A stretch of 29,870 nt of DNA from a virus (IMGVR_UViG_2695420871_000012); one strand, 5' to 3'. Positions 15,461-24,927 are shown, numbered from the stretch's first letter. The notes: a model not told the origin generated them from the letters alone. Numbers and translations are program-made.

Positions 15461-18238
15461 ATGACAGTAAAAATTTCTGGCGTGCTTAAAGATGGCACAG
15501 GAAAACCAGTACAGAACTGCACCATTGTGCTGAAGGCCAGACGAACCAGCAGCACGATGGTGGTGAACACGGTGGCCTCTGAAAATCCGGATGAAGCCGG
15601 ACGTTACAGCATGGATGTTGAGCATGGTCAGTACAGCGTCACCCTGCTGGTTGAAGGTTTTCCGCCTTCACATGCCGGGACCATTACCGTCTATGAAGGT
15701 TCCAGACCAGGTACGCTGAATGATTTTCTCGGTGCCATGACGGAGGATGATGTCCGACCGGAGGCACTGCGCCGCTTTGAGCAGATGGTGGAAGAGGTGT
15801 CACGTAACGCCTCCGCGGTTGCACAGAATACGGCAGCCGCGAAAAAATCAGCCAGCGAGGCGGCAACTCATGCAACCGATGCTGCAGCCTCAGCACGTGC
15901 CGCCAGCACGTCAGCCGGACAGGCCGCGTCGTCGGCTCAGTCAGCGTCTTCCAGCGCAGGAACGGCATCGACAAAGGCCCGTGAAGCAGCAAAAAGTGCT
16001 GCTGCAGAGTCATCAAAAAGCGCGGCAGCTACCAGCGCCAGTGCCGCGAAAACGTCAGAAACGAATGCCGCAGCATCACAAAAATCGGCAGCCACTTCTG
16101 CATCCACAGCGACCACGAAGGCGTCAGAAGCTGCCACCTCGGCACGGGGTGCGGCGGCCTCAAAAGAGGCAGCGAAATCTTCAGAAACGAATGCATCATC
16201 AAGTGCCAGTAGTGCAGCTTCCTCGGCAACGGCGGCAGGAAATTCCGCGAAGGCGGCAAAAACGTCCGAGACGAACGCTAAGTCTTCTGAAACAGCAGCG
16301 GGACAGAGCGCCTCAGCTGCGGCAGGTTCAAAAACAGCGGCTGCATTATCTGCCAGTGCCGCGTCAACAAGTGCCGGGCAGGCCTCAGCCAGTGCCACCG
16401 CCGCCGGAAAATCGGCAGAAAGCGCCGCATCATCCGCTTCAACAGCCACAACGAAGGCTGGCAAAGCCACTGAGCAAGCCACTGCAGCAGCGAGGTCTGC
16501 TTCTGCAGCAAAAACCTCTGAAACAAATGCAAAGACTTCAGCAGACAATGCTGCTTCCTCTAAGGCAGCAGCCGCATCGTCAGCCAGTTCAGCGGCGTCA
16601 TCGGCATCATCTGCGTCTGCTTCAAAAGATGAGGCGACCAGACAAGCGTCAGCAGCGAAAGGTAGTGCCACGACAGCAACAACGAAAGCATCAGAGGCGG
16701 CAGGCAGTGCGACGGCTGCATCTCAGAGCAAAGTTGCTGCTGAATCCGCGGCAACGCGCGCCGAGACAGCAGCAAAACGGGCAGAGGATATTGCATCCGC
16801 CGTGGCGCTGGAGGATGCGAGCACGACGAAAAAGGGGATAGTACAGCTCAGCAGTGCGACCAACAGCACTTCCGAGTCACTGGCGGCAACGCCAAAAGCG
16901 GTTAAGGCGGTAATGGGTGAAACGAACAAGAAAGCGCCCTTAAATAGTCCTGCACTGACCGGAACGCCAACAACACCAACTGCGCGACAGGGAACGAATA
17001 ATACCCAAATCGCAAGCACGGCTTTCGTTATGGCTGCGATTGCCGCCCTTGTAGATTCGTCACCTGATGCACTGAACACGCTGAACGAGCTGGCTGCGGC
17101 GCTGGGCAACGACCCGAATTTTGCGACCACCATGACTAACGCGCTTGCGGGTAAGCAACCGAAAGATGCCACCCTGACGGCGCTGGCCGGACTTACTACT
17201 GCGGCAGGCAAGTTTCCGTATTTTACGGGGAATGATGTCGCCAGCCTGGCAACCCTGACAAAAGTCGGGCGGGATATTCTTGCGAAATCGACCGTTGCTG
17301 CCGTTATCGAATACCTCGGTTTACGAGAACTCGGCACAAGCGGGGAGAAAATACCGTTACTCAGTACAGCGAATACCTGGACTAATCGACAAACATTCAG
17401 CGGTGGCCTTTCTGGTGAACTATCCGGCAATGCTTCTACAGCTGCAAAATTAAAAACTGCCAGGAAAATAAGCAATGTGGCTTTTGATGGTTCCTCCGAT
17501 ATCACATTAAAAGCAAGTCATGTTGGTGCGTTTGCCTTAGGGAAAACAGGAAGCACCGTTGCGAATGATAAAGCAGTTGGATGGAACTGGAGTAGCGGAG
17601 CCTATAACGCAACTATTAGTGGTGCATCAACGTTAATTATTCATTTTTATATGGGAGAAGGAAGTTGTCCTGCAGCTCAGTTTCGGATTAATTATAAAAA
17701 TGGCGGTATTTTTTATCGTTCAGCCCGTGATGGTTATGGTTTTGAAGCCGACTGGTCCGAATTTTACACCACCAGAAAACCTTCAGCAGGAGATGTTGGT
17801 GCACTGCCGTTATCTGGTGGTCAACTGAATGGTGCACTGGGTATCGGAACATCCAGTGCTCTTGGCGGTAATTCGATTGTATTGGGTGATAATGACACGG
17901 GCTTTAAACAAAAAGGCGATGGTAATCTGGATGTTTATGCTAATAACGTCCATGTTATGCGCTTTGTCTCCGGAAGCATTCAAAGTAATAAAACCATAAA
18001 TATTACGGGACGTGTTAATCCCTCGGATTACGGTAACTTTGATTCCCGCTATGTGAGAGATGTCAGACTTGGCACACGAGTTGTTCAGACCATGAAGAAA
18101 GGCGTGATGTATGAAAAATCAGGCCATGTAATCACGGGGCTTGGTATTATCGGTGAAGTCGATGGTGATGATCCGGCAGTATTCAGACCAATACAAAAGT
18201 TAATTAACGGAACATGGTATAACGTATCGCAGGTATAA
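15461..18238 (+). CDS. stf: Side tail fibre protein Stf: lambda-like conserved N-terminus, long Ala/Ser-rich central repeat region, constant region ending at the gix-like site, and variable C-terminal receptor-binding segment Sv
   Basis: 925 aa; N-terminus [26 protein letters not shown]… as in lambda Stf; AAKTSETNA-type repeats. Confidence 0.9.
16883..17324 (+). repeat. Left arm of a 442-bp inverted repeat (stf constant-region segment), ending at the crossover site
   Basis: Sequence identical in reverse complement to 20226-20667; encoded peptide ATPKAVKAV…VIEYLGL appears in both Stf and the minus-strand ORF 19332..20777. Confidence 0.8.
17304..17329 (+). other. gix/hix/pix-like 26-bp invertase crossover site 1 (reverse complement TTCTCGTAAACC GA GGTATTCGATAA) at the stf constant/variable junction
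   Basis: Two 12-bp half-sites around a 2-bp GA core, close to the Mu gix site as I recall it (TTCCTGTAAACC GA GGTTTTGGATAA); homology with the other copies breaks exactly here. Confidence 0.7.
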
Positions 18239-18240
18239 TC

Positions 18241-18774
18241 ATGCAGCATTTAAAAAACATTGTCGCAGGTAATCCAAAAACCGTTGAACAATACCAGCTA
18301 ACAAAGAATTTTGATGTTATCTGGTTATGGTCCGAAGATGGAAAAAATTGGCATGAGGAATTAAAAAACTTTCAGGAGGATACAATAAAACTGGCTTACA
18401 CAGTTGAGGGAATAATTATTGCTATAGACAAGGATGTATCAGCAATTAATCCAGAAGGTTTAAGTGTCGTTGAGTTGCCTGATATTACAGCAAATCGCCG
18501 GGCTGATATTTCGGGCAACTGGATGTTCAAAGATGGTGCGGTGATAAAGCGAACTTATACCGAGGAAGAGCAAAGGCAACAAGCGGAAAATGAAAAGCAG
18601 AGCCTGCTGCAGCTCGTCAGGGATAAAACCCAGCTGTGGGACTCTCAGCTACAGCTGGGCATCATTTCCGATGAGAATAAACAAAAATTAACCGAGTGGA
18701 TGCTCTATGCGCAGAAGGTTGAATCCACAGACACCTCCAGCCTGCCAGTAACGTTTCCCGAACAACCAGAATGA
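18241..18774 (+). CDS. tfa: Tail fibre assembly protein Tfa (cognate to Sv)
   Basis: 177 aa starting [14 protein letters not shown]; starts 3 nt after the stf stop. Confidence 0.85.
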
Positions 18775-18776
18775 GA

Positions 18777-18806
18777 GAAGGCCCGCTATCGGGCCTTAAT
18801 TTTTAT
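18777..18806. terminator. Stem-loop (AAGGCCCG ctat CGGGCCTT) with T-rich flank between convergent tfa and tfa2
   Basis: Perfect 8-bp stem between two convergent stops; repeated in inverted form at 23140-23167. Confidence 0.5.
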
Positions 18807-23701: not shown

Positions 23702-23703
23702 GA

Positions 23704-24612
23704 TTATACCTGCGATACGTTATACCATGTTCCGTTAATTAACTTTTGTATTGGTCTGAATACTGCCGGATCATCACCATCGACTTCACCGATAATACCA
23801 AGCCCCGTGATTACATGGCCTGATTTTTCATACATCACGCCTTTCTTCATGGTCTGAACAACTCGTGTGCCAAGTCTGACATCTCTCACATAGCGGGAAT
23901 CAAAGTTACCGTAATCCGAGGGATTAACACGTCCCGTAATATTTATGGTTTTATTACTTTGAATGCTTCCGGAGACAAAGCGCATAACATGGACGTTATT
24001 AGCATAAACATCCAGATTACCATCGCCTTTTTGTTTAAAGCCCGTGTCATTATCACCCAATACAATCGAATTACCGCCAAGAGCACTGGATGTTCCGATA
24101 CCCAGTGCACCATTCAGTTGACCACCAGATAACGGCAGTGCACCAACATCTCCTGCTGAAGGTTTTCTGGTGGTGTAAAATTCGGACCAGTCGGCTTCAA
24201 AACCATAACCATCACGGGCTGAACGATAAAAAATACCGCCATTTTTATAATTAATCCGAAACTGAGCTGCAGGACAACTTCCTTCTCCCATATAAAAATG
24301 AATAATTAACGTTGATGCACCACTAATAGTTGCGTTATAGGCTCCGCTACTCCAGTTCCATCCAACTGCTTTATCATTCGCAACGGTGCTTCCTGTTTTC
24401 CCTAAGGCAAACGCACCAACATGACTTGCTTTTAATGTGATATCGGAGGAACCATCAAAAGCCACATTGCTTATTTTCCTGGCAGTTTTTAATTTTGCAG
24501 CTGTAGAAGCATTGCCGGATAGTTCACCAGAAAGGCCACCGCTGAATGTTTGTCGATTAGTCCAGGTATTCGCTGTACTGAGTAACGGTATTTTCTCCCC
24601 GCTTGTGCCGAG
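23704..24612 (-). CDS. Promoterless second copy of the stf variable C-terminal segment Sv, ending at gix-like site 3
   Basis: Identical to the Stf C-terminal about 300 codons; frame open up to the crossover site; no upstream constant region in this orientation. Confidence 0.7.
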
Positions 24613-24638
24613 TTCTCGTAAACCGAGGTTTTAGATAA
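24613..24638 (-). other. gix-like crossover site 3 (plus strand TTCTCGTAAACC GA GGTTTTAGATAA) adjacent to the invertase gene remnant
   Basis: Best of the three matches to the Mu gix site as recalled; 30 bp upstream of the pin-like start, the canonical gixR-gin arrangement. Confidence 0.7.
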
Positions 24639-24668
24639 TGGCGGTTTCTGGCCTGCATGGCATGATTT

Positions 24669-24927
24669 GTGCTTTTGGACGGGAGATTCAGCGTGCTGAT
24701 TGGCTATGTAAGGGTATCAACAAATGACCAGAATACAGACCTGCAACGAAACGCTCTTGTTTGTGCAGGATATGAACAAATATTTGAAGATAAATTAAGC
24801 GGAACAAGGACAGGCCGACCTGGATTAAAACGTGCTTTAAAGCGCCTTCAAAAAGGTGACGCACTGGTTGTCTGAAAACTGGACTGACTGGGTCACTGTA
24901 TGCGGCATCTTGTCGTGCTGGTGGTGG
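24669..24927 (+). pseudogene. pin: Pin/Gin/Hin-family serine DNA invertase, inactivated: nonsense codons at 24873-24875 and 24885-24887, then truncated at about codon 85 where it joins a tfa 3' remnant
   Basis: N-terminus VLIGYVRVSTNDQNTDLQRNALVCAGYEQIFEDKLSGTRTGRPGLKRALKRLQKGDALVV is close to E. coli Pin as recalled; homology continues past the stops (KLD*LGHCMRHLVVLV). Confidence 0.8.

Follow-up and report, generated by a model that had tools for sequence, protein, structure and literature searches.

The stretch of DNA IMGVR_UViG_2695420871_000012, 29,870 nucleotides (nt) long and referred to below as the window, carries a side tail-fibre gene (stf) followed by an invertible segment that a preliminary description had presented as a frozen, multi-site inversion system with three crossover sites, an inverted 2 kb duplicate, and ipaH and methyltransferase genes inside the invertible stretch. 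This arrangement is very probably a scaffolding artefact, put together from four contigs around an ordinary two-site invertible tail-fibre segment of the Gin/Pin type. All the parts listed in that description are present in the window; it is their contiguity that fails, being broken at N positions in the deposited record. The third site, the inverted duplicate, the long repeats of the constant region, and ipaH in the invertible stretch exist across unknown bases alone.

The whole window corresponds to the GenBank record CXEH01000067.1 (assembly GCA_001259515.1), a short-read draft. For comparison, loci were collected and labelled L001–L035; ten relatives among them are chromosome-length, and L004, L005, and L008 are drafts without N. 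When the window was aligned with the record over positions 5461–29870, three bases differed and no more: at 20667, 22554, and 27225, the record has N where the window has A, and all three N are present in both independently fetched copies of the record (L003 and L006). The window is thus made of four contigs: C1 (1–20666), C2 (20668–22553), C3 (22555–27224), and C4 (27226–29870). The join at 20667 falls directly after the last base of a 447-nt repeat arm, and the 2 kb "duplicate" starts with that at 22554; the flanks of each join diverge from both putative parents, and there is no common homology there. Sites 1 and 2 lie on C1 and site 3 on C3, with two N joins in between, so that the adjacency of the three sites and the duplicate is not an observation, because different contigs have been placed side by side by the scaffolder.

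By its accession block, the record would come from a Sanger pipeline in which Velvet assembly is combined with SSPACE scaffolding and 120 rounds of GapFiller, and in which read-pair joins are written as N; the authors of the pipeline themselves consider the tools greedy and false joins likely (PMC5320598). A sister draft from the same accession block, L007 (CXCZ01000126.1), likewise has two paralogous lambdoid prophages interleaved across N joins. In this draft, N are found at 3436, 4533, 4600–4709, 6410–6419, 11140, and 14817–14857, the prophage pieces J, lom, and stf are at 86–87% and 99% identity (the same class of artefact), and a full-length ipaHe is placed straight after the invertase remnant.

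In complete genomes, the locus is much plainer. The exact tfa protein occurs at one place per genome, always beside trpA (10/10 chromosome-length records), and the order of the locus is stf, site, Sv, tfa, tfa′, Sv2′, site, invertase remnant, tfa 3′ remnant, methyltransferase, Rha/Ash, and trp. A single segment accompanied by the same dead invertase is present in all ten chromosome-length relatives, and in none of them does the trp locus contain ipaH or an inverted duplicate. Two inverted sites are found in five of the ten, where the stf side is intact; in the other five, Sv2 is interrupted by an insertion sequence (IS) and the locus has no left site. More than two sites, as in the p15B Min type of multi-site system, were found at the locus in none of the ten. 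The same layout is seen in Escherichia coli NCTC86. The multi-site reading and the inverted 2 kb duplicate are therefore not supported, since the sites are joined across N alone, and the caveat attached to the preliminary description, namely, that a misassembled duplicate would reduce the architecture to a single G-like segment, is the one that applies. The coordinates of the features are collected in Table 1.

Table 1. Features of the window, including those that belong to another locus or result from scaffold joins.
Feature	Position	Strand	Description
stf, side tail-fibre gene	15461..18238	+	925-amino acid (aa) open reading frame (ORF); constant part to 17303, in-frame fusion to Sv 17330-18238
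Invertible segment, B/G-like	17330..20219	.	2890 bp; Sv (+), tfa, tfa2, Sv2
tfa	18241-18774	+	ORF, Caudo_TAP
tfa2	18803-19330	-	ORF, Caudo_TAP
Sv2	19332-20219	-	Alternative fibre arm, gp37-like fibre end
Crossover site 1	17304..17329	-	TTCTCGTAAACC-GA-GGTATTCGATAA; Sv inner and stf-side outer half-site; unflipped left junction
Crossover site 2	20220..20245	+	TTCCTGTAAACC-GA-GGTATTCGATAA; Sv2 inner and stf-side outer half-site; flipped left junction
Crossover site 3	24613..24638	+	TTCTCGTAAACC-GA-GGTTTTAGATAA; Sv inner and invertase-side outer half-site; flipped right junction
Reverse-complement copy of stf 16883-17329	20220..20666	-	Flipped-state stf-Sv2 junction reads into it; stops at scaffold join
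Second representation of Sv-tfa-tfa2 (17330-19387)	22555..24612	-	Flipped state, read from the invertase side
Dead Din-family invertase, pin/gin remnant	24693..24921	+	GTG start 54 bp from site 3
tfa 3′ remnant	24922-25039	.	True right neighbour of the invertase remnant
Scaffold join	20667	.	N in record, A in window; base fits neither the stf copy nor ipaHe
Scaffold join	22554	.	N in record, A in window
Scaffold join	27225	.	N in record, A in window
Contig C2	20668..22553	-	ipaHe 5′ 921 bp (20668-21588), upstream region, and methyltransferase copy 1 (coding part 21904-22553)
Class I S-adenosylmethionine (SAM) methyltransferase (copy 2)	25074-25742	-	True right neighbour, with the tfa 3′ remnant, of the invertase remnant
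ipaHe-locus flank, not this prophage	25724..27224	+	tfa remnant 25799-26068 and 5′ part of an IS110-family element
Contig C4	27226..29870	.	Methyltransferase "copy 3" and true right flank of the trp-proximal prophage (Rha, Ash genes)
Rhs C-terminal fragment	160-1074		RHS repeats and DUF4329
IS21-family element	istA 1962-3134, istB 1165-1965	-	Abuts the Rhs fragment

The stf product bears a PF08400 (phage_tail_N) domain at residues 1–134, and an identical 925-aa protein, the product of the unflipped state, is found in L004 and L005; few public contigs altogether encode it. According to the ORFs and Pfam matches, the segment encodes two Caudo_TAP proteins and gp37-like fibre ends, that is, two alternative C-terminal arms, each with its own assembly chaperone, opposed inside the segment, with the constant N-terminal part outside. 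Both fusions are full-length ORFs, of 925 aa for stf–Sv and 918 aa for stf–Sv2 (L017). The segment as a whole has about 82% nucleotide identity to the G region of phage D108, and the likeness to the Mu G, P1 C, and e14 P layout noticed at the outset is borne out, with a constant stf and Sv–tfa and tfa′–Sv2′ facing each other. As read in the window, there are two inverted repeats, one of 447 nt (16883–17329/20220–20666) and one of 2089 nt (17300–19388/22554–24642). The two copies of Sv–tfa–tfa2 are identical save for the outer half-site, which is as expected if they are the same DNA.

A crossover site of the Din family consists of two 12-bp half-sites around a 2-bp core. A pattern search of the window revealed three such 26-bp sites, with none expected from shuffled sequence; the gix-like sites proposed at 17304, 20220, and 24613 are thereby upheld. 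The sequence of site 1 recurs as the left site in L004, L005, L023, L024, and L001, all of them unflipped. Site 2 is the left site of the flipped L007, L008, L017, L022, and L025 and base for base the published bixL (PMC3241671, Table 3). The outer half-site of site 3 is the outer half of both bixR and D108 gixR, and the complete right site of the unflipped L004, L005, L023, and L024 is bixR (TTCCTGTAAACC GA GGTTTTAGATAA), as well as D108 gixR. All of these are genuine Din-family crossover sites with a GA core.

Both orientations of the segment exist among closely related isolates. It stands in the unflipped state (stf–Sv) in L004, L005, L023, and L024, with TTCTCG..GGTATTCGATAA as the left site and TTCCTG..GGTTTTAGATAA as the right one, and in the flipped state (stf–Sv2) in L007, L008, L017, L022, and L025, with TTCCTG..GGTATTCGATAA on the left and TTCTCG..GGTTTTAGATAA on the right. 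Thus, the inner half-sites move with the segment, the outer ones stay put, and the strands are exchanged exactly at the GA core, as is characteristic of a Din-family serine invertase. Since these four unflipped and five flipped relatives, all about 99.7–99.9% identical to the window, carry the same dead invertase, at least one inversion must have taken place after the invertase died. The term "frozen", applied to the system previously, is contradicted by this distribution.

The piece of DNA that separates the "duplicate" from the segment comes from elsewhere. Contig C2 has 0 mismatches over 1886 bp to positions 8040–9925 of L029 and L033, where the locus has the order mlrA, integrase remnant, tfa (DUF4376), ipaHe (547 aa), methyltransferase, tfa remnant, IS110, IS1, dinI, and btsS. 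Annotations of enteroinvasive E. coli (EIEC) show this ipaHe arrangement as well, though with no IS elements. C2 belongs to this mlrA/btsS locus and not to the trp-proximal prophage, and hence the 7.3 kb inversion including ipaH and methyltransferase copy 1, postulated in the preliminary description, is not supported. On the left, C2 begins at a point 723 bases into ipaHe that falls within the multi-copy ipaH 3′ region; among the Shigella and EIEC virulence plasmids listed, the identity of this region to ipaH9.8 is at least 99.6% (130/144 matching records are from Shigella). On the right, C2 breaks off in a T-run where the methyltransferase gene has its 5′ end. An exact look-up of the truncated 314-aa IpaH product gave no match on record.

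C3, for its part, runs out of its methyltransferase into the flank of the ipaHe locus. From 24922 onward, the window is identical to complete genomes up to 25722, and mismatches to the trp-locus genomes begin at 25723, while window 25034–27224 aligns without gaps to L029 9236–11426 with six mismatches. C4, in turn, is 99.8–100% identical to complete genomes. Methyltransferase copies M2 and M3, the second and third in the window, do not differ across the gene body and most likely represent one physical gene assembled twice. The methyltransferase repeat of about 0.7 kb is common to two real loci, so the loci have been interleaved by scaffolding.

Taken together, these data point to the following origin of the scaffold. 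A serine invertase cuts both 26-bp sites at the central GA and swaps the intervening DNA, so that the constant part of stf is joined in frame with one of two arms, Sv (giving 925 aa) or Sv2 (giving 918 aa), and each arm comes with an assembly chaperone of its own. C1 leaves the segment through site 2, the flipped left junction, back into stf, producing the "447-bp inverted repeat", and C3 enters from the invertase side through site 3, the flipped right junction, producing the "2 kb duplicate"; C2 and the right part of C3 are drawn from the mlrA/btsS locus with ipaHe, where the methyltransferase repeat is also present. Greedy gap filling may have walked out of the contig ends along flipped-state reads. 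The scaffold contains junctions of both orientations and the relatives hold a single copy, so a mixed culture is the simplest reading, and the sequenced culture probably held both orientations.

Several points weigh against this explanation. The fourth junction expected of a mixed culture, with Sv2 beside the invertase remnant, is absent from the scaffold, and the mixed state is deduced from assembled contigs rather than from read depth or read-level support of the joins. A repeat boundary at 16883 or 19388 was sought in E. coli NCTC86 and not found, and a real second copy of 16883–19388 would account better for the contig ends there. A tblastn search with Gin against the 35 loci yielded no intact invertase, just the same remnant. 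Moreover, the attribution of CXEH01000067.1 to the Sanger pipeline, judged from the accession block, is indirect, as is that of the organism to Shigella sonnei, which would follow from the accession block and the matching complete genomes. Accessions close by in the same CX.. block have been cited as belonging to the S. sonnei collection of Holt et al. 2012 (PMC5447701), S. sonnei ATCC 29930 (CP026802.1) is among the chromosome-length matches to the window, and strain 75/02 (CP019689) matches at the ipaHe locus.

The contig ends bring up the foremost alternative, which we consider unlikely: this isolate would have a real second copy of 16883–19388 (the end of the constant part of stf, a site, Sv, tfa, and tfa2) in the opposite state, in another prophage or as a segmental duplication, and the assembler would have left the two-copy repeats wrongly, without any heterogeneity of the population being needed; the ipaH scaffolding would still be wrong. 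Contig ends exactly at 16883 and 19388 do resemble the boundaries of repeat nodes, the 2 kb stretch is found in two contigs, as is usual for sequence judged repeated, and the sister isolate L007 has a second lambdoid stf paralogue (87% identity, N-terminus). However, the exact tfa protein occupies one place in every complete genome, always at the trp locus, and the drafts free of N (L004, L005, and L008) pass straight through 16883–19388, as short-read assemblers do for single-copy sequence alone. The two copies are also identical but for the outer half-site.

That the order of the scaffold is real, with a three-site locus in which 16883–19388 has undergone a tandem-type duplication, a fragment with ipaH and methyltransferase sits at the joint, and two invertase-mediated inversions have occurred, is very improbable. 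Formally, such a structure can be derived from a duplication of the D-X-D type and two inversions between inverted sites, and the joins imply that the scaffolder found read pairs linking the contigs. Nevertheless, both novel junctions are N and not sequence, and C2 is identical to the mlrA/btsS locus in the same orientation and with the same neighbours. Both ends of C2 also fall where multi-copy sequence is known, one in the ipaH 3′ region and the other in the methyltransferase gene, the methyltransferase common to both loci explains spurious read-pair links, and the structure is present in none of the ten complete relatives. There is a similarly slight chance that, in this one isolate, a duplicated stf–Sv–tfa block and a fragment of ipaH, a virulence effector gene, lie between three functional Din-type sites, so that an invertase acting in trans could flip 7.3 kb with ipaH and regenerate the same fibre fusion. 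An origin of the junctions through illegitimate recombination, or through duplication with two inversions, was also considered and rejected: both junctions are N, and the insert is an intact piece of another locus.

Least probable of all is the origin of the two orientations in RecA-dependent homologous recombination, with the segment a fossil devoid of active switching: the resident invertase is indeed dead in every relative examined and an invertase in trans has not been identified, but the sole inverted homology in real genomes is the 26-bp sites with an exact core of about a dozen bases rather than a 447-bp repeat, the exchange point falls within the site core in every isolate with the clean swap of inner and outer half-sites typical of Din-family strand exchange, and cross-complementation among these invertases is established (PMC12529663). 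Accordingly, of the two routes of switching offered in the preliminary description, an invertase in trans is retained as the one needed, and RecA acting across the 442-bp repeats falls away, as the second arm of these repeats (20220..20666) exists as independent DNA in none of the complete relatives.

Returning to the two-site segment with a scaffolding artefact around it, the state of the adjacent invertase, described from the start as dead, deserves attention. About 77 codons are left, interrupted by two in-frame TGA codons, and beyond approximately codon 77 a tfa 3′ end takes over (at about 24921). PF00239 (the resolvase N-terminal domain) is recognized at residues 11–68 of the remnant, its first 180 nt align to D108 gin with about 97% nucleotide identity, and the spacing between the site and the invertase start is 54 bp both in the window and in D108. 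An identical dead remnant is found in all the relatives examined, the copy in E. coli NCTC86 being annotated as "incomplete". No functional serine invertase is therefore encoded beside the segment, where codons 1 to about 77 alone remain, and inversion needs an invertase in trans; from the pattern of half-site exchange, we infer that such an enzyme would act on the segment.

A protein search with the 60-aa remnant returned short fragments alone and no intact invertase, and a search with the D108 Gin protein returned thousands of enterobacterial invertases without usable organism labels. Cluster listings contain one 184-aa invertase with Shigella and ENA accessions, a candidate for this role. 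As for the cis-acting part of the system, PMC3798978 places the enhancer about 100 bp from a hix site and, for Mu, "within the invertase gene"; in this family, it occupies the 5′ part of that gene. Given the match of about 97% to gin over 180 nt, the remnant probably still carries a cis Fis-dependent enhancer.

The kind of system to which the locus belongs is already known, having been described in 1991 for Shigella: Tominaga et al. reportedly found then an invertible B segment with pinB in Shigella boydii (GenBank D00660). The bixL and bixR sites of that segment have been tabulated (PMC3241671). Likened by its sites and organisation, the present locus shares with the B segment the exact bixL and bixR, a G-like organisation, the GA core, and a position on a Shigella chromosome rather than in a phage, and from these features it would be the counterpart of the S. 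boydii B segment. It differs in that the invertase here is a 77-codon remnant with two stop codons, and in that the inner half-site on the Sv side is TTCTCG and not TTCCTG.

With the G segment of Mu and D108 and its gin gene, the locus shares the S-U-U′-S′ order and a downstream invertase; with D108 in particular, it has in common gixR as the unflipped right site, the 54-bp spacing, a gin match of about 97% (180 nt), and a segment identity of about 82%. In contrast to Mu and D108, the constant part here is that of a lambdoid side tail fibre (PF08400) and not Mu S, and the host is a decayed prophage (J is split, and head genes are replaced by IS21 and an Rhs fragment) whose invertase is dead.

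The e14 P segment, served by PinE and PinQ, is similar in being an invertible stf segment in a cryptic prophage that makes no virions (PMC12529663). It has been shown by experiment that PinQ of prophage Qin flips the e14 P segment in trans, and that the e14 segment, flipped in trans, blocks adsorption of phage T2 (PMC12529663). However, e14 has kept its own active PinE, its segment is 1.8 kb long, and its pix sites have an AA core (PMC3241671), as opposed to the GA core here; the Shigella segment, for its part, is known here from sequence alone. Din-family systems with at least three crossover sites per molecule do exist, namely, the Min cluster of p15B and omp1 of Dichelobacter nodosus (PMC3241671). 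The earlier three-site model would resemble these, but the real locus has two sites: the third is the same junction in the other orientation, joined by the scaffolder, and hence the locus is unlike p15B Min and omp1.

Two lessons can be drawn. First, three bases standing for "unknown" carry the entire striking architecture, and in scans of draft assemblies, contiguity should be taken to end at every N, or at whatever has been substituted for it, before any repeat, duplication, or gene fusion is read across such a position. Second, an orphan tail-fibre switch, whose own invertase has been destroyed in a prophage that forms no particles, still flips among very close isolates, apparently of S. 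sonnei. The precedent of e14 makes a possible host-beneficial role of such a switch in Shigella worth testing.

One of the two arms may have been lost in many genomes. Window position 18086 (23856 in the second representation) belongs to a CAG codon, Gln876 in the Sv arm, and the same is true of L004 and L005, while the base at the equivalent position differs in 10/10 chromosome-length relatives. Where fibre genes are called in the latter, there are two products in place of one, either 875 + 48 aa for the fibre or 203 + 48 aa for the Sv arm. These split ORFs fit a TAG stop in the Sv arm, and in most closed genomes this arm would then be a pseudogene already.

The Sv2 arm is affected in another way. 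An IS3-family element is inserted at one point in Sv2 (the equivalent of 19616–19620) in L016, L018–L021, and L025, and in five of these IS3-bearing genomes the stf side is no longer adjacent, which suggests that an IS-mediated rearrangement has parted the segment from its constant part in those five genomes.

The tfa 3′ end is present in three copies of about 118 nt (24922–25039, 25971–26088, and 28159–28276; 74–100% identity), which adjoin the methyltransferase copies and the point of truncation of the invertase. They look like recombination scars of the exchange of tail-fibre modules between prophages. In the flank drawn from the ipaHe locus, a 385-aa ORF for an IS110-family transposase (26147–27304) has an artificial 3′ end, since it continues past the N at 27225 onto the methyltransferase contig. 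The IS110-family element of closed genomes has a 375-aa product, and IS1 and dinI come after it.

Finally, the element that hosts the segment is a decayed, defective lambdoid prophage beside the trp operon, so that switching of virion host range is moot. The IS21 element and the Rhs fragment (160–3134) stand in for all phage genes upstream of gpZ (3325), and the gene for the tail-tip protein J is broken up into a pair of ORFs that overlap (547 and 513 aa; 11464–14642). The split is probably a frameshift, a further sign of a defective prophage. E. coli NCTC86 and EIEC have a single J gene of about 3.5 kb, and the same IS21 transposase is found at many places in one closed genome.

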